64,000 nt of DNA from Mobula hypostoma (GCF_963921235.1 NC_086097.1:126978001-127042000); one strand, 5' to 3'; shown: positions 909 through 31,500, counted from the stretch's first letter. A program made the numbers and translations. The notes: generated from the sequence alone by a model not told the origin.

Positions 909-3900
909 GTGTGTTGGTGTGGGAGAGCGTTTTCCAGCATTAAAGGTGTACGAATCCACCAAGCAAAGTTGAGGTGCTATTCCATCCCAGTGGATGAAGA
1001 TGAGATTACTTCACCAAGCATAGGTGATGTGGTCTTTTCAACCACTGATTCACAAGCCACAGCAATTCGCTCTGGAGAGAGGCATCATACTCCAGGTCAG
1101 ATGAGAGATAACCCAGGTCAGGTTTCAGACCACAGTACCCAGGTAGATCCTTCGCATGATGGCGGTGGTGAGGAGGTAGGGAAGAAGAGAAAGGTCAAGT
1201 GGCCAGCAATGGCAGATGAGAAGGCTTGACGTGTATTTGATGAGGATATCAGTATGATGTTGGAGAACACTCTCAGGGGAACACCAAAGAGGAAGTTGGA
1301 AGTGATGGGCAATATGATTTTCGATGTTGGAAAGTACAGGTTTGGTTTGGTTGAGTTGAAGAAAGCAAAGCCTACACAGCAACCAAGCAGGCACCAGAAG
1401 GAGATTAGTAGGTTGAGGAGAGAGCTTAGATTGTTGAGACTGAGGTGGAAGGTAGCAAGTGAGGGTGACAAGCCAGGGCTTGCTGATCTCCGAGAGCATT
1501 TTCGATTAAAGTTAGCATCACTCTGTCGTGCAGAGTCACAACGTCAAAAGAGAAAGAAGAGAGAGAAGGCAAGAAAGTCGTTCTTTGAGAACCCTCATGA
1601 GTTCACAAAGAAACTGTTTGAACAAAGTAAGAGTGGGCAGCTTAACATCTCTCAACAAGAACTTGAGGATCACCTGGCAAGCACTTACTCTAACGAACAG
1701 CGGGAGGCTCCTTTGCTTGACATTTCAGGGCTTGTGAAGCCTACCAAGCCAGGAGTGAAGTTCAATCTGTCAGAACCCAAACTGGCAGAAGTCGAACGGT
1801 TCATCAGAAAGGCAAGGTCAGGCTCAGTGCCAGGACCTAATGGAGTGCCGTATAACGTGTTCAAGAAGTGTGAACAGCTGAGAAAATACTTGTGGAGATT
1901 GTTAAAGGTGGTGTGGAGACAAGGTGTTGTTCCTTTGTCATGGAGTGAGGCTGAAGGAGAAAACATCCCGAAGGAAGAGAATTCTTCTATATTGAATCAG
2001 TTCCAACCAATTTCACTCCTGAATGTAGAGGGGAAGATTATGTTTGGCTTTCTGGCAGAAAGAATATCTTCATTTGTGATAGAGAATGGATTAGTAAATA
2101 CATCTGTGCAGAAGGCAGGAATACCAGGCTTCCCGGGATGCCTTGAACATTCTAGTATGATATGGCATACCGTCCAGGAGTCAAAAAGGTTGAGAATAAA
2201 TCTGGCTGTAGTTTGGCTTGATCTGGCAAATGCATATGGTTCTGTTCCCCATGTCCTGATTGAGTTTGCGATGGAATTCCTATGGATTCCTGCTAAGGTG
2301 AGGAACTTGGTTATGCAGTCCTGCAACGATTTCCGGATGAGGTTTTCCACTCAGCAGTTTACAACTAGGAGGCAGAGCTTGGATGTTGGAATCCCAATGG
2401 GATGTGCGATTTCACCCATCCTTTTTGTGTTAGCCGTGGAGGTCATTGTGAGGGCTGCAGAATCAGTGGGACCAGGTGTCGCACTTGATGGCGGAGGGGA
2501 GTTACCACCAATACGAGCGTTCATGGACGATCTCACCCTTTTGGGTCCCAGCACAGAGGCAGTGGAAAATGTACTAGCTAGACTCAAGGAGCTCATGGAT
2601 TGGGGAAGAATGAAGTTCAAGACCAAGAAGTCAAGGAGCCTTGTTCTCAGGAGAGGAAAGCTGGTTGACTTTCATTTCACCCTTTGTGGAGAGGAGATTC
2701 CATCCATTCAGGACCAACCAGTTAAGAGCCTTGTGCGATGGTACACAGAGGAGCTGAGAGACACCAAGAGGGTTCAAGAGACAGGAGAACAGATCAATAG
2801 AGGTCTGATGTCTGTTGACAAGTGTGGCTTGCCTGGCAAGTTGAAGTTGTGGTGCTTGCAGTATGGACTGATGCCATGGATAATGTGGCCACTAACTGTC
2901 TATGAGGTGGCAATGTCCCATGTTGAGGCAATGGAATGGAAGATCAACAAGTATGTGAAGAAGTGGCTTGGAGTACCGAGCAGCCTCACCAATGTTGCAA
3001 TCCACAGTAGCCAGACAAAGCTTACCATCCCAGTGCAATCCCTCATTGAAGAGGTCAAGGTTGCCAAGGTAAGATCATTCTTGATGCTTTGAGACTCAAA
3101 AGACCCTGTCATCAAGAATACCCAGCCAGATGTGAGATCAGACAGGAAGTGGTCAGCCCGTGTAGCAGTTGATGAGGCAGAGTCTAGACTGAAGCACAAA
3201 GAGACGGTTGGGACTATCCAGTTAGGCCACCAGGGACTTGGGTGGACAACCCACAAGTGGTGGTCATCTTCTACAGGTAAGGAGTGCCGTGAGCTTGTAA
3301 CACAAGAAATACGAGAGGTAGAAGAGGAGAAGAGGTTAGCTAAAACAGCTGGCCTGGCCAAACAAGGGGCTTGGACTTGGTGGGAAAGTGTTGAACAACG
3401 ACATCTATCTTGGAATGTTCTGTGGCAGATGGAACCGCTCCGTATTTCTGTTCTATGCAGAGCAGCGTACGATCTGCTCCAAACACCTGCCAACCTCAGC
3501 ACCTGGTATGAAGGTAAGACAGGCAGGTGTGCTGCTTGTGGCGAGAAGGGAACACTTCAACATATTTTGAGTGCATGCAGAGTCAATCTTTCCAGCGGCA
3601 TATACATATGGAGACATAACAACTTTCTCAAAGTTGTAACAGAAGCGGTTGAGCAGAGAGTACTGCAGCACAACTTATCTCAAACCCCATGCTGCACAGA
3701 ACATCGCATATTATTTGTGAAAGAAGGCTCCAAGTCAAGGGTGTACAGCGCAGGCTCACGATCAAGCATACTTTCTTCAGCCAATGATTGGTGTGTCAAG
3801 GCCGACCTGGATGGGAAAGGCAGTTTCCCGGAGCAAATAGCTTTCACCACATTGCGTCCAGATATATTTGTATGGTCTAACACCAGTAGAGAAGTGGTTA

Positions 3901-4187
3901 TTGGTGAACTCACAGTCCCCTGGGAAGACAACATCGATGAAGCCCATGAGCGCAAGTTAACCAAGTATGGAGAATTAAGATCAGAGTGCAGAGACAGAGG
4001 GTGGAAGGTCTCATGCTATCCATTTGAAGTAGGCTGCCGTGGGTTTATTGCGTTCACTCTCCAGAAGTGGCTGCGTGACCTTGGCTTCACTAGAAGAGAG
4101 ATCAAGTCAACCAGCAGGGCTGTAGCTGAGGCAGCAGAGAAAGGATCAGCATGGATGTGGACCAAGTATGTCCAGAGGGGCAGATAG
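909..4187 (+). pseudogene. HERO-like ZnF-RT-RLE polyprotein, one frame broken by two TGA stops (1227-1229, 3090-3092)
   Basis: ORFs 909-1229, 1254-3092 and 3132-4187 share a frame, which is open upstream to 672. Confidence 0.88.
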
Positions 4188-4338
4188 TCAGACAGTGTAT
4201 ACATATCTTGCAAACCCTTCAATAGTTGCATAGACACCTGAAGAGCAGACTATCTGTTGGATGGAAGTGACTGATAGTGGCAGATGCCAAGTTTTTAAGC
4301 TCACCAGGGGGAGGTGGTGCTTTAGCACTGCTGGCCCA

Positions 4339-4414
4339 CCACCTCGAGGGAGTCTTGATCATAAGCGGGCTGAAACTCCTGAAGACAGGTGGCGGATCAA
4401 CTGATGATCCCACT
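4339..4414 (+). ncRNA. Putative non-circularly permuted hammerhead ribozyme in HERO 3' UTR
   Basis: GGAGUC (4349-54) pairs with GAAACUCC (4372-79); UUGAUC (4355-60) pairs with GAUCAA (4395-4400), followed by CUGAUGA (4401-07); extra helix CCACCU/AGGUGG. Confidence 0.7.
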
Positions 4415-4465
4415 GGTGATAGCACAGGACAGTTAACATGTTAGTCCAAGTGTATTTTTAACTCT

Positions 4466-25214: not shown

Positions 25215-28130
25215 GAGACTGGGTGACCAACCACGAAAAGAGTGGTGACGACTGGAGAGTCAGTGACAGCCCGGAGAGACAGCAACCAGGGCAGAACGGG
25301 CTGGCAACCCAATCTGTGTCCTCTGAAAGGAGGACCCCCACATAAGCCACAAAGAATCTAGGAAAAGATACCCCCAGGGGTGCCCGAGAGGGGGGGAGGA
25401 TGAGCACCCCAGTCGGAAGGACACAATGACATCAGACCCAGGCAATGAACAAACGACGATGAGGAAGCAGTGTGCACGTGGCAGAATCTGCAAGAACGAT
25501 CGTGGCTTGAAGATCCACCAAGCGAGGATGAAGTGTTTGGCGGGAGCAGGAGCAGCACAACACGCAACTGTCCAACGTGGTGAGACGAAGGAAGGGCCAG
25601 GCCCGGAGTCACCCCATAGTGCCCGGAACCTCCAAGTGTTGCAAACTAATCCCTCGAACATGAGTAACAGGAGGCGGATCAAATGGTCTGCAGCTAACAT
25701 GACTTCACTGTGGAAGCAGTTTGATGAAGATGTTAACCAAATTCTGGAGGCAACGGCGAAGGGAGGGGCTGATAGGAAGATGCAAGCCATGACAACAATT
25801 ATTGTCAGTATCGCAGCTGAACGGTTCGGAGAAGAGGAGAAGGAAGGCTCCAAAACATCTTACTCGAAGAACCAAAGAGCATCGAGGATCCACAACATCA
25901 GGCAGGAGATGAAAGCGCTGAAGTCCCAATACAAGGAGGCAGGAGAAGAGGAGTGCATTGGCTTGGCCCAGCTGATGTGCATACTACGAAAGAAGATCAG
26001 GGTCCTCTGCCGGGCAGAGTGGCATTGGAGGCGGCAGCATGAAAGGGCTCGAAAACATGCTGCCTTTATCACCAATCCCTTCAAGTTCACCAAGGAGTTG
26101 CTGGGGGAGAAGCGCAGAGGGAAACTGGCCTGTTCACAGGTAGACTTAGACCAACATCTGAAGAAGATATATAATGATCCTGAAAGAGAGCAGGAGTTGG
26201 GAGAGTGCGACATCCTAATAGACCCACCTGAACCGGATGTGCAGTTCGACATGTCAGAGCTGCAGCTAAAGGAAGTCAGAGAGGTCGTCCGCAAAGCAAA
26301 GACAAGCTCGGCTCCAGGACTAAGCAACACCTCGTACAAAGTGTACAAGAATTGCCCCAAACTCCTGCTGCGTCTGTGGAAGGTCCTGAGAATCTTCTGG
26401 AGAAGGGGGAAAACCCCAGAGCAGTGGAGAGTGGCTGAAGGGGTGTGGATCCTGAAGGAGGAAAATGACACCCAGATAGATCAGTTTCACATCATCTCCC
26501 TGCTGTGTGTCGAGGCGAAGATCTTCTTCAGTGCAGTTTCTAAACGGCTCTTTAAGGGCCACAACATCCATTCAGGCAACCTGCACCGAGTTGGATGGCT
26601 GGCTGAGATCTGTGGACAAGTCTGGCCTACCTGGGAAGTTTAAAGCCTGGATGTATCAGCATGGCATTCTTCCCAGAATCCTATGGCCCCTCCTCATCTA
26701 TGCAGTCCCGATCTCGACAGTCGAAACCTTAGAGAGGAGGGTTAGCAACCACCTCAGGAGATGGCTGGGGCTGCCAAAGAGCCTGAGCAGCATCGCACTC
26801 TATGGACACCACAACAAACTGCAACTGCCCTTCAAATCCTTGGAGGAGGAATTCAAGGTAACAAGAGCCAGAGAAGTGCTACAGTACAGGGACTCAAGTG
26901 ACCCGAAGGTGGCTAGAGCAGGGATCCAAGTAAGTATTGGCAGGAAGTGGAGGGCAGAGGAAGCTGTTCAGGAGGCAGAGGCAAGGCTGCATCACAGGAG
27001 GCTGGTGGGAGTGGTCACACGAGGCCGAGCTGGGCTAGGATCCTTTCCAACTCCCCAAATGGACACCAGAGGGAAGGAAAGGCGTCATCTAGTTCAGGAG
27101 GAGGTGAGAGCAGTAGTGGAGGAGATGAGAGCCTGCAAGGCGGTGGGAATGAAGCAACAGGGAGCTTGGACAAGATGGGAGAATGCGGTTGAGAGGAAGG
27201 TGACCTGGGCTGATCTTTGGAAAGCCGAACCACACCGCATCCAATTTCTCATCCAGGCAGTGTACGATATGCTTCCAAGTCCATCAAACCTGCACACATG
27301 GGGCAAGGCAGAGTCATCTGCGTGCCCACTGTGCTCTAAGCGAGGAACCCTGGAGCACATCCTCAGCGGCTGTGCAAGGGCACTTGGTGAGGGACGGTAC
27401 AGGTGGAGGCATGATCAGGTCCTGAAGACCATCGCTGAAGCTGTCAGCGCAGGAGTTGAGTGGGCGAAGCGGTCCCGACCCTCCAAGCAGACCATTGCCT
27501 TTGTCAGAGCTGGGGAGCAGCCAATACCTGCCAACAGAACATCTGCAGGCATTCTGACCCCTGCAAGGGACTGGCAGCTGTTGGTGGACCCCGAAGGGCA
27601 GCTGAAGTTCCCCAACCATATCGCAGCCACCGCCCTGCAACCAGACGTTGTCCTAGTGTCTGAGTCGACTAAGCAAGTGGTGCTGCTGGAGCTGACAGTC
27701 CCATGGGAAGATAGCTTGGAAGAGGCCTTTGAAAGGAAGCTCTCCAAGTACGCAGGACTGGTCAGCAACTGTCAGCAGGCTGGATGGAGAGCGAGGTGTC
27801 TCCCAGTGGAGGTTGGTTGTAGGGGATTTGTAGCCCGTTCTTCAGTTAGAGCCTTCAGCATTTTGGGCATCGAGGGAGAGAGGAAGAGGAGAGCCATCCG
27901 CAGTACCACCAATGCGGCAGAGAGGGCCTCAAGATGGCTGTGGCTCAAAAGAGGGGAGCCATGGAGTCATAAGTAGCTAGCCATCTGGACACAAGCTGGG
28001 GTCTGATCAGCCCCGGCTGGGTCACCTGGGGGAGGCTGTATGACGTTGAAAGACCCGAAACACCCGATGATTCCAGGAACATCACTGAAGATGTGTCCAG
28101 AAGCATCAATAGATGTATGTACACAACAGT
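25215..28130 (+). mobile_element. Second, divergent HERO-like retrotransposon with internal deletion of the RT core
   Basis: Zinc finger CARGRICKNDRGLKIHQARMKC, GLPGKFK, CPLCSKRGTLEHILSGC, RHD, PDVV..ELTVPWE..K.SKY; no xxDD region, frameshifted junction near 26550. Confidence 0.9.
28025..28098 (+). ncRNA. Putative permuted hammerhead ribozyme in second HERO 3' UTR
   Basis: GGcUGUA (28034-40) pairs with GAAACACCC (28057-65); UGAcGUU (28041-47) pairs with AACAUCA (28078-84), followed by CUGAAGA (28085-91); extra helix CCUGG/CCAGG. Confidence 0.65.
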
Positions 28131-28510
28131 GTAATAGGGTAACGAATCACACAGCATCCACACAAACAGGGGTTTGGGGTGGGCTCGTGCCTCAACCTCA
28201 CAGGTTTGGCGGGGCCAAAGTTTGTCTTCCCTAGACTTACACAACTGACAGAACCAGAGTGTTTCATGAGCATATAATTATTAGTTTAATTAGTACGGCA
28301 CAATATTTTGGGCCAAAATGTCTCTCCTGCTTTTCTATACTCAATAGCCACTGTATTAGGAACCTATTGTCCCTAATTCAAGATTGCTTAATGTCAGTTC
28401 CAGTACAGAGGTGTAGAGGAGAATGAAGTAATTGTGACTCCGGATCTGATGCAGCACAAAAAAACACAAAACTAAATTATAATTTAAAAACACAATAAAT
28501 AAAAATACAT

Positions 28511-31500
28511 TGTGTTGCCCTTAAGGCATTTATTTGACTTTGTTGGGTCTACACTTTAAATGATTTGTTTGTAACTATTTTCTAGTAAAAGTTAAAGGTT
28601 GATAATTAAGTTACAGTATAACAGAGGTAAATTCATTGCCTATGGTATATCGCGGTTTGTGATGACGTCACCTCCGGTTTGCCGCAAGGATAGCTACAGA
28701 GTTAGAAGTGCTGACGCTACAACGAGAAACTGATGTGGCCACGGTGGAAGCACAGGTGTTGGAAAACGCTGAAGAAATGCATGTTCTAGACGAAAGAGGA
28801 AATTCTATGCCAGAAAGGGCCAAATTGGAACGCACCAGAGAATATGTCCAATCTCAAATTGACCTGCAGATTCATTCTTTCTCTCCATACTTGCCTGTTG
28901 GCGTCCCATCTCATGTGAAATCACAGGGAAGCTTCGTTACATCACATCCACCTGGGGAAGACAACTCACGGTATGAAAGGGCTGACTACAAATACTTCCC
29001 GACACCAAACTTACCAGACCCGGCGAGATCAGAGACAAAGGCTGAAGTCAGAACATCAAATCCCATCATGAACGTACACGCTCAGTCATATGTTCCCCAA
29101 CATATTCCCCCAGCTAGCACACCACCTGCAGCAGAACCCTTGGCACAGTATTTAGCACGACGAAACCTCGTCAATTCAGGACTGTACCAGTTTGACGATA
29201 AGCCTGAAAATTACTGTGCATGGTCCTCCTCATTCACCAGCGCCACCGGCGGAGTCCAGCTCACAGTAATCCAAGAGTTGGACCTTATGACTAAATGGCT
29301 GGGAAAGGAATCAAGTGAACAGGTGAAATGCATACGCTCAGTGTACATCAACAACCCCGAGCTAGCCTTACACAACGCATGGGAGAGACTGCGGGAGTGC
29401 TATGTGGCCCCTGAAATTATTGAGAGGGCGCTATTTCAACGGCTGGGCAATTTTCCTAGGGTGTCAGCCAAGGACCACACTAAATTACGAGAACTCGGAG
29501 ATTTACTCATGGAGATTCAAGATGCTATAGAAGACGGCTATTTAACTGGCCTGTCGTATCTGGATACTTCACGCGGAGTTGGACCAATTGTGGACAAGCT
29601 TCCATTTGGGCTGCAGGAAAGATGAATGTCTATTAGCTCAGAGTACAAGGAAGAGAACGGTGGTCGATTCCCTCCCTTTGAGTATTTTAGTAGGTTTGTG
29701 TGCAAGGAGGCGAAGAGGCGAAACGACCCTAGCTTCATGAATCAAGGCAGCACCACAACTCACACCAAGCCAGTCAAACCCATTTTGAACAATTTTGTCA
29801 TCAATAAACCGGTCTCAGTGCATAAAACTGAAGTCTCCGCAATCAACGATGATCCTAGCAAGAATTGTCCATTGCACAACATACCCCACCCCCTCAAAAA
29901 ATGTAGAATGTTTTGAAACAAACCCTTTGATGAAAGAAAGGCCCTTCTCAAGGAAAAAAGAATATGTTTTAAGTGCTGTTCCTCTGCCTCCCACCTCGCT
30001 GAAGAGTGTACGTTCCCCGTAAAGTGCTCAGAATGTAACAGCACTAATCACGATGGAGCCATGCATCCTGGCCCGTCACTGCAGACTGCCAAGGCTCCTC
30101 CACTCCCACAAGAGGATGGCGGGGAGGGAGAGCATCACTCTGATACAACTATTGTCGGCTTGAGCTGCACAGAAGTTTGCAGTCCAGGTCAGTCGAGCCG
30201 TTCGTGCTCAAAGATCTGCCTCAATAAGGTATACCCTAAGGGAGCCAAAGACAAAGCCATCAAAGCCGATGTAATACTGGATGACCAGAGCAACTGCTCA
30301 CTAGCGAGACCAGAGTTCTTCGAGTTGTTCAGCGTAAAGGGTAATCCATTCCCATACTACCTCAGAACTTGCCCTGGCATCACAGAAGCGATGGCAGGAA
30401 GGCAGAAGGCTTCCAGCTAGAGCCGCTGGATGGCAAAGTCGTCATCAGTCCCCCTCCACTCTCAGAGTGCAATGACATTTTGAATAACTGATCTGAGATT
30501 CTGATGCCAAGTGCAGTGCTACACCAGCCTCATCTCCACCACATTGCCAAGCACATCCCAGAACTGGATCGGGAAGCAGAAGTACTCCCGCTACTCGGAA
30601 GAGATGTTCTTAGGGTGCACAAGGTCAGGCAGCAGGTCAATAGACTACACAACGCCCCCTTTGCCCAACGTCTGGATCTGGGCTGGGTGGTGATAGGAGA
30701 GGTGTGCCCTGGCAATGTACACAAACCAATAGTTAACACGCTCAAGACTAACGTGCTAGAGAGAGGCCACCATTCAATTTCTCAGCCCTCCACAAGTGTT
30801 GTGTGTATCAAGGAAGCACAACAAAGGCACGACATAGTAAAGTAACTGAGAAGACACTGGGACAGTCAGTCTTCGCTCAAACTAAGCATGATAATAAAGT
30901 TGCTCCATCGGTGGAAGATGCCATCTTCTTAAAAATAATGGACACAAAGGTTTTTAAGGATGAAGCAAACAACTGGGTTGCTCCACTACCATTCAGAGAA
31001 TCATGCCAGCGCTTACCAAACAACAAAGAGCAGGCAGTCAACTGGTTCGCATCTTTACAACAAACTCTGGAAAGGAAACCTGAGACCAGTTACCGAGGTT
31101 GTTCTACTTCTACCTAAAGACTGATTTAAAGAGTTCTATACCATGTTTATAGTGACCTTACAAAGGTCAGGCGGGGAGTGTGTTGCCCTTAAGGCATTTA
31201 TTTGACTTTGTTGGGTCTACGCTTTAAATGATTTGTTTGTAACTATTTTCTAGTTAAAGTTAAAGGTTGACGTCACCTCCGGTTTGCCATGTCTTATGTG
31301 TAACCTCTGATTCGGGAAGGGATAAAGGTGGGTGCCATGCGTGCAGCATGATCGTGAAGAGCTCCGTTCTACCCACAAAGAAACATTATAGAAGCAACGC
31401 TGTAAGTTCCTACGGAAGTATTTGAAGTAAAAATATTAATGCGGTTTCTGTTAAGGAAGCGGCGGTTCTGGTGGCGCACGTGTCGGCTTTTCAATTTCAA

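Follow-up and report, generated by a model that had tools for sequence, protein, structure and literature searches.

A candidate rewired hammerhead domain in the 3' untranslated region of restriction-like endonuclease-type retrotransposons of Mobula hypostoma

RESULTS AND DISCUSSION

A conserved domain with a hammerhead core

We analyzed a 64,000-nt stretch of the Mobula hypostoma genome (GCF_963921235.1 NC_086097.1:126978001-127042000), here called the window. It contains two copies of retrotransposons without long terminal repeats (non-LTR retrotransposons) of the restriction-like endonuclease (RLE) type, both on the plus strand. The second copy (copy 2) carries in its 3' untranslated region (UTR), at 27985-28100, a decayed copy of a conserved domain of about 116 nt, here called the RLE domain. 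The domain contains a complete hammerhead core and is predicted to cut itself between A28040 and U28041. We give this reading, which comes from sequence comparison, a probability of roughly 0.6. An original prediction had placed a permuted hammerhead fold at 28025-28098, and this segment sits inside the domain. All of the words that it named were found at their places. The core words of copy 2 are in the order site (GUA), GAAA, and CUGANGA, or S-G-C.

Eighty relatives of the C-terminal protein domain, with 33 to 84% protein identity, were taken from metagenome contigs. The descriptor for the site-GAAA-CUGANGA order consisted of a helix III strand of at least 4 bp, a non-G letter, and a helix I strand of at least 5 bp, followed later by GAAA with the III partner and later again by the I partner with CTGANGA. 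It matched 34 of 68 3' UTRs, copy 1 counted. The same descriptor matched 0 of 68 in each of 100 dinucleotide shuffles and gave no match on the reverse complement. Copy 2 misses the strict form solely through its two mismatches. A relaxed form matched 46 of the 80 loci, although three of these (L068, L129, and L131) look spurious by eye. Several of the loci that it missed are decayed or truncated copies. Relatives were also sought in viral_contigs, and none was found there.

The helices covary. A MAFFT alignment was made of 20 sequences; the other 6 of 26 (L077, L080, L094, L104, L106, and L132) were left out, with their 5' halves misplaced. Helices Q, P, III, and I were paired in 97.1% of its cells, against 69.8% when shuffled and at most 46% with slid partners. 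Compensatory changes were present in 18 of its 22 pairs. A model-based alignment regained L077, L094, L106, and L132. A covariance model built from helices P and III only gave 49 matches, all on the open reading frame (ORF) strand: 47 in 47 of the 80 loci and 2 in the window. The helices outside this model still pair in its alignment (96.8% for I and 94.4% for Q). Taken over I, III, P, and Q together, 95% of cells pair, compared with 68% after shuffling. Compensatory changes were found in 6/6 pairs of helix I and 4/5 pairs of helix Q in the model-based alignment, and helix Q was paired at 94 to 98% across alignments. The claim that copy 2 shares the strand-permuted architecture of copy 1, with other helix sequences and a retained core, is thus borne out by the P and III model and by covariation. 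The natural covariation noticed between the two copies extends over 47 further relatives.

The core was examined in 48 distinct rows. The CUGANGA box stands next to helix I and retains C3 in 46 rows, U4 in 47, G5 in 47, A6 in 48, G8 in 47, and A9 in 47. The GAAA box stands with the A15.1-U16.1 pair, which opens helix III, and retains G12 in 41 rows, A13 and A14 in 48 each, and A15.1 in 47; U16.1 is present in 46. The C15.2-G16.2 and A15.1-U16.1 pairs are retained. The first letter of Q, at the 10.1 place, is G in 48/48 rows, and the pair that it forms there is G-C or G-U. Position N7 takes all four letters (A in 7, U in 33, C in 6, and G in 2). Position N17, between helices III and I, is A in 15, C in 21, U in 11, and G in 1, in an alignment without constraint on N17. 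In 7/48 rows, and in some of the contig depth from other organisms, A stands in place of G12. The C28056-G12 step is a CpG, so G12-to-A changes are expected from deamination in dead copies. As read from these rows, only N7 and N17, the positions that are free in hammerheads, vary.

Short hammerhead-like words could arise by chance in a GC-rich UTR. A 91-nt piece around the originally predicted coordinates folds no better than shuffles (z +0.5), and there is no Rfam hit (see below); both would fit that explanation. The score of +0.5 arises because two partner strands lie outside the piece, and with them included it becomes -2.25. The shuffle and covariation controls refute chance, to which we assign practically no probability. 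Chance resemblance is confirmed as excluded, and the observation is real.

Architecture of the domain

Features of the domain are given in Table 1. Strands were assigned by rule, and 28 of 30 non-redundant sequences were fully assigned. Outer helix II forms between the 5' edge of the domain and the strand that directly follows CUGANGA. Most lineages have an equivalent helix of 6 to 14 bp directly after A9. An equivalent of hairpin A, 13 to 26 nt long, is found at the corresponding place in most of the 28 assigned sequences. The strand directly after hairpin A pairs with the five letters before G12 and forms helix Q. Outer II, hairpin A, and Q adjoin without spacers, so the place of the classic stem II would be a four-way junction. 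Helix P connects Q and I, at their far ends, with the far end of III. The P/III junction consists of a GA/GA loop and a 3-nt bulge.

Table 1. Features of the RLE domain in copy 2 and in copy 1 (window coordinates)
Feature	Coordinates	Strand	Remarks
Outer helix II, upstream strand CUGGACACA	27985-27993	+	Pairs with 28092-28100; recovered by minimum free energy (MFE) folding
Hairpin A, stem AGCUGGGG/CCCCGGCU, loop UCUGAUCAG	27994-28018	+	Abuts outer II on one side and Q on the other
Helix Q, 5' strand GGGUC	28019-28023	+	Pairs with 28052-56; first G pairs with the C before G12 (10.1-11.1 place)
Helix P, 5' strand: clamp CCUGG (28025-29) plus GG	28025-28031	+	Pairs with 28071-77
GA of P/III internal loop, K-turn-like	28032-28033	+	Faces GA 28069-70; G in 41/48 and A in 47/48 rows
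Helix III, 3' strand GGCUGU	28034-28039	+	C28036 mismatched in the window copy
N17 (A), predicted cleavage 28040/28041	28040	+	By hammerhead core position; GUA triplet 28038-40
Helix I, 3' strand UGACGUU	28041-28047	+	C28044 a private mismatch; 6/6 pairs compensatory
Helix Q, 3' strand GACCC	28052-28056	+	Directly before G12
G12 A13 A14, start of GAAACACCC (28057-65)	28057-28059	+	48-row alignment
Helix III, 5' strand ACACCC, A15.1 first	28060-28065	+	Covariation
3-nt bulge GAU plus GA	28066-28070	+	GA in 45/48 and 44/48 rows; within CCGAUGA 28064-70
Helix P, 3' strand UUCCAGG (includes CCAGG 28073-77)	28071-28077	+	Covariation
Helix I, 5' strand AACAUCA	28078-28084	+	Covariation
C3 U4 G5 A6 N7 G8 A9 (CUGAAGA)	28085-28091	+	46-48/48 rows per fixed letter
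Outer helix II, downstream strand UGUGUCCAG	28092-28100	+	Pairs with 27985-93
3' tail: small hairpin (28103-16, read from the sequence), then single-stranded end	28101-28131	+	Copies end at 28126-28136
Copy 1 domain	4302-4418	+	Architecture as in copy 2; P and III model, 63 bits; MFE z -3.4
Copy 1 outer helix II	4302-12/4408-18	+	
Copy 1 hairpin A	4313-32	+	
Copy 1 helix Q	4333-37/4367-71	+	
Copy 1 helix P	4339-44/4387-92	+	
Copy 1 CGA	4345-47	+	
Copy 1 helix III	4348-53/4375-80	+	
Copy 1 N17 (C)	4354	+	
Copy 1 helix I	4355-60/4395-4400	+	
Copy 1 GAA	4372-74	+	
Copy 1 CUGAUGA	4401-07	+	

In 24 of 29 sequences, copy 2 left out, the periphery (Q, P, A, and II) scored better than each of 50 shuffled versions of the upstream part. 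Partners were swapped among 19 of the 28 assigned sequences, those with at least 6 pairs in II and at least 4 each in Q and P. Contiguous pairs with own and swapped partners, respectively, were 7.9 and 1.5 (of 8) for II, 4.8 and 1.9 for Q, 4.8 and 1.8 for P, 5.0 and 1.2 for I, and 5.8 and 3.0 for III. Pseudoknot-free MFE folding recovered outer II and hairpin A in 6/6 folded domains, with z scores of -2.25 to -4.73.

A classic stem II, between the strand after CUGANGA and the strand before GAAA, was considered and rejected. It has at most two contiguous pairs in 29 of the 30 non-redundant sequences. Of the three hammerhead helices, I and III covary, and in place of II there are a hairpin and two helices, Q and outer II, that covary. 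The stem II of copy 2 had originally been called weak. It is instead wired differently, and its partners at 27985-93 and 28019-23 and hairpin A had been overlooked. The predicted permuted fold holds in its S-G-C block order; a simple S-G-C wiring does not, and extra partner strands are present. The second CUGANGA-like linker seen in both copies is conserved only as (U)GA. It faces GA across the 3-nt bulge and is not a second core box.

A kink-turn (K-turn) consists of a 3-nt bulge followed by tandem G-A and A-G pairs between two helices. Its letter pattern, taken as a pattern only, is present in most rows: the two GA steps in 41 to 47 and in 44 to 45 of 48 rows, a 3-nt bulge, and a next P pair that is mostly non-standard. 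The pattern is absent in L077, L080, L094, L106, and L132.

Two further observations concern hairpin A. In copy-2-like lineages its 5' arm GGGGUCU (27998-28004) can pair with AGACCC at 28051-28056, as can the Q strand at 28019-28023. This competing pairing is possibly an alternative conformation. The loop of hairpin A retains UGAUCA in several lineages.

The two mismatches of copy 2

The 30 best genomic copies, the window's own among them, were aligned. Contigs of four runs from other organisms were used for letter variants only. Position 28044 is T in 28 of the 30 genomic copies and in 479/598, 7/7, 14/14, and 204/224 of the contig depth. At position 28036, 21 of the genomic copies have T, 7 have C, and 2 have G, and G makes up 316/497, 7/7, 14/14, and 258/276 of the contig depth. 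The expected restoration of both mismatches by the family consensus was thus seen in both sets for U28044; for G28036 it was seen in other organisms and not in most copies of this genome. Position 28030 is A in 29/30 genomic copies.

Helix I is fully paired in the family. Relatives also have a fully paired helix III, which contains a U-C mismatch in most of the copies sampled from this genome. Judging by its sequence, copy 2, which is mismatched in both I and III, is likely to be impaired. As a separate observation, a weakened helix III seems to be tolerated by the subfamily that is amplifying in this genome.

Host element and family

The ORFs of copy 1 are at 1254-3092 and 3132-4187, and those of copy 2 are at 25426-26643 and 26507-27976. 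Copy 1 has a Pfam RVT_1 match (E value of 1.3e-14). The only Pfam match of copy 2 is a sub-threshold one to zf-RVT. The C termini of both copies, which are 41% identical, contain a CCHC-like motif and the motifs PD...ELTVPWE...KY...EVGCRGF, as read from the sequence. We take these to be the CCHC and restriction-like endonuclease motifs. The element thus has a reverse transcriptase, a C-terminal CCHC motif, and a restriction-like endonuclease, which is the domain content of the HERO clade. HERO was the label of the original prediction, and we presume it here from domain content rather than from reverse transcriptase phylogeny.

Both copies are members of large young families in the 3.48-Gb genome, with 1,450 and 1,835 first-look candidates. 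Forty genomic copies were scored, and they were 96 to 100% identical. Homology in the copy-2 family stops at about 28126-28136, which agrees with the predicted distance of about 90 nt from the cut to the end of the element. In copy 1, homology stops at 4465. The predicted 86 nt from the copy 1 cut, after C4354, to a 25-nt terminal repeat at 4441-4465 were also found. This repeat recurs at 606-630, immediately before the copy 1 5' UTR. The hammerhead-like domain takes up almost all of the 3' UTR; a short hairpin and then a single-stranded end come after it.

Comparison with known hammerheads

A literature search found no report of hammerheads in RLE or HERO elements, with subscription journals outside its coverage. 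Classic type I, II, and III hammerheads, including those of Penelope-like elements and retrozymes, have the same core letters, helices I and III, cleavage-site rule, and link to retroelements. They have C-G-S order or a circular permutation of it and match Rfam. The RLE domain has S-G-C order, which is not a circular permutation of theirs.

Type-SGC and type-CSG hammerheads are described as non-circular permutations that cleave in vitro (Eckert, Friedrich, Weinberg & Weinberg 2023; PMC10085705). They come from metatranscriptome viroid-like RNAs that also carry hairpin ribozymes, and only two type-CSG sequences are reported. In the known fold, stems I and II run alongside each other, with III directed away from them (PMC10085705, PMC7761336).

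Type SGC, as described for HRIMA-1 and its variants, has much in common with the RLE domain. The S-G-C block order is identical, the hammerhead core is full, and a short linker joins stem I to the pre-GAAA strand. An extra helix likewise links I and II at their far sides and connects, through 0 to many spacer letters, with the far end of III, and there are at least two pseudoknots. The RLE domain could on these grounds be an ordinary member of the published class, with a wiring that is not new. We consider this very improbable. The blocks of type SGC are uninterrupted, with stem II between C and G, whereas the RLE domain lacks that pairing in 29/30 sequences and both strands have other, covarying partners. 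Block C of the RLE domain is interrupted after A9, and the strand that follows forms the outer closing helix. The pre-GAAA strand pairs with an upstream strand that follows a hairpin, and this gives the four-way junction. A K-turn-like GA/GA loop lies between P and III. None of these three features belongs to type SGC as described. The hosts also differ. The RLE domain lies in the 3' UTR of an animal-type RLE retrotransposon, and the published type-SGC examples are from metatranscriptome contigs with hairpin ribozymes, with no retrotransposon context in the text or one supplement (PMC10085705). Cleavage is shown for type SGC and predicted for the RLE domain.

By our own derivation, the RLE wiring would result from type CSG by opening the chain between A9 and the stem II strand and moving the I5'-CUGANGA segment to the 3' end. 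This would place it in the same circular class as SGC, CSG, and GCS. Unlike type CSG, as published, it would have its opening within a block, with an extra helix and a hairpin closing it. On the wiring deduced here, the RLE domain is not a type-SGC member as defined, and it reads as a further opening of the same circle inside block C.

Proposed fold and cleavage

Helices I and III flank N17 as in any hammerhead. In the proposed fold, a closed scaffold would hold the three core strands in hammerhead geometry. Helix Q, with its invariant G, would stack under the A9-G12 pair like stem II. A linker of 1 to 7 nt connects the far ends of I and Q, which meet P. Helix P would run back to the far end of III, and a sharp kink at the GA/GA loop would permit this. 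The core stack, outer II, hairpin A, and Q would form the four-way junction at the place of stem II. Cleavage is predicted to follow the usual hammerhead chemistry, after A28040. More than 25 bp, in outer II, Q, P, and III, would keep the products together, so that the cut would be readily reversible.

Several points weigh against a self-cutting hammerhead. Rfam searches of the whole window and of 500-nt pieces around both copies gave no hammerhead or ribozyme at the gathering score or at an E value of 10 or less. For the S-G-C strand order, this lack of a match to the Rfam hammerhead models is expected. Between A9 and the 10.1 place the backbone departs from the core, at a point where Eckert et al. 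assumed that blocks cannot be interrupted (PMC10085705). Most copies sampled from this genome have the U-C mismatch in helix III (28036), and the family is nevertheless numerous. Cutting 90 nt from the 3' end would part the ORF from the end at which reverse transcription starts. The hammerhead of a Penelope-like element is described as cleaving only with protein and as dispensable for insertion in vitro, and no RNA-seq ends are reported at its site (PMC11167929). It poses a puzzle similar to that of the RLE domain.

Genomic 5' ends also weigh on this side. Thirty genomic copies of the copy-2 family were picked using just the 94 nt downstream of the predicted cut, and 0/30 started at 28041. All reached upstream, the starts ranging from 26637 or beyond to 28022. 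Of 30 genomic 5' UTR starts in the copy-1 family (L171-L200), 20 were directly preceded by the 3' part of another copy. These abutting 3' parts were 21 to >1,490 nt long and always finished at the exact 3' end of the element. They began at 2974 to 4444, and 0/20 began at 4355.

A ribozyme that makes the 5' ends of downstream tandem copies was considered as well. It predicted upstream partial copies starting at the cut, and it was rejected on the same 0/20.

The domain may instead derive from a hammerhead but have ceased to cut in the cell. It would then act as a structured 3' UTR handle for the reverse transcriptase in target-primed reverse transcription, as in R2. R2 proteins are described as recognizing and binding a small 3' UTR RNA that is pseudoknotted and has a single-stranded tract after it (PMC12222951). 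Like the RLE domain, the R2 RNA is compact and pseudoknotted and stands, with a single-stranded tail, at the 3' end of a non-LTR element of the RLE type; unlike the RLE domain, it has no hammerhead core reported in that paper. We regard the handle as a tentative possibility. It accords with a domain that fills nearly all of the 3' UTR, with the short hairpin and single-stranded end that follow, with the absence of genomic 5' ends at the predicted cut (0/30 and 0/20), and with an abundant family of this genome that tolerates a helix III mismatch. It accounts less well for the core. Relatives down to 33% protein identity retain all the catalytic letters, the G at 10.1, and the near-absence of G at N17. 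The positions that vary are only those free in hammerheads, and protein binding alone need not demand this set. A handle role and cutting are not mutually exclusive.

Possible role and meaning

If the domain is a cutting hammerhead, our best guess for its role is the processing of multi-unit transcripts from head-to-tail copies. The 5' UTR follows a 3' end also in six metagenome loci (L065, L069, L070, L071, L089, and L102). The head-to-tail pattern fits template jumping, and it equally fits the copying of tandem or circular RNA. A further and rather unlikely extension concerns an autonomous, coding element that resembles a long interspersed nuclear element (LINE). Its rewired hammerhead would cut multi-unit transcripts to unit RNAs and rejoin them to circles, and the reverse transcriptase would copy round them and lay down head-to-tail copies. 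If this were true, the element would be a coding counterpart of retrozymes.

The predicted self-cutting domain would place non-circular permutation, first reported in 2023 in a few viroid-like RNAs, in a large and widespread family of animal-type retrotransposons. It would add a wiring in which the conserved block itself is split and a four-way junction takes over from stem II. Its dozens of covarying natural sequences would allow a test of the rewiring that a ribozyme core tolerates. The link between hammerheads and retroelements would extend from Penelope-like elements and retrozymes to RLE-type LINEs. What a ribozyme does for a retroelement would then become testable in a second system.

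Other features of the window

The 5' UTR of copy 1 (640-745) contains an array of short hairpins (CCAG-GAAAGU-CUGG) with UGACAAC spacers, conserved at the nucleotide level. The array is also present at L065:2867-2981, L069:2807-2921, L070:2288-2402, L071:2815-2929, and L102:750-864. The lineages that have it in common differ strongly in protein. RNAalifold gave 23 pairs for the array, 8 of them with compensatory changes. The 5' end of copy 1 had no credible match in Rfam and no hepatitis delta virus-like hit. A 305-aa ORF lies just 3' of copy 2, at 28708-29625 on the plus strand. It has a weak match to DUF1759 (E value of 0.003, below the cutoff) and is probably part of another mobile element.

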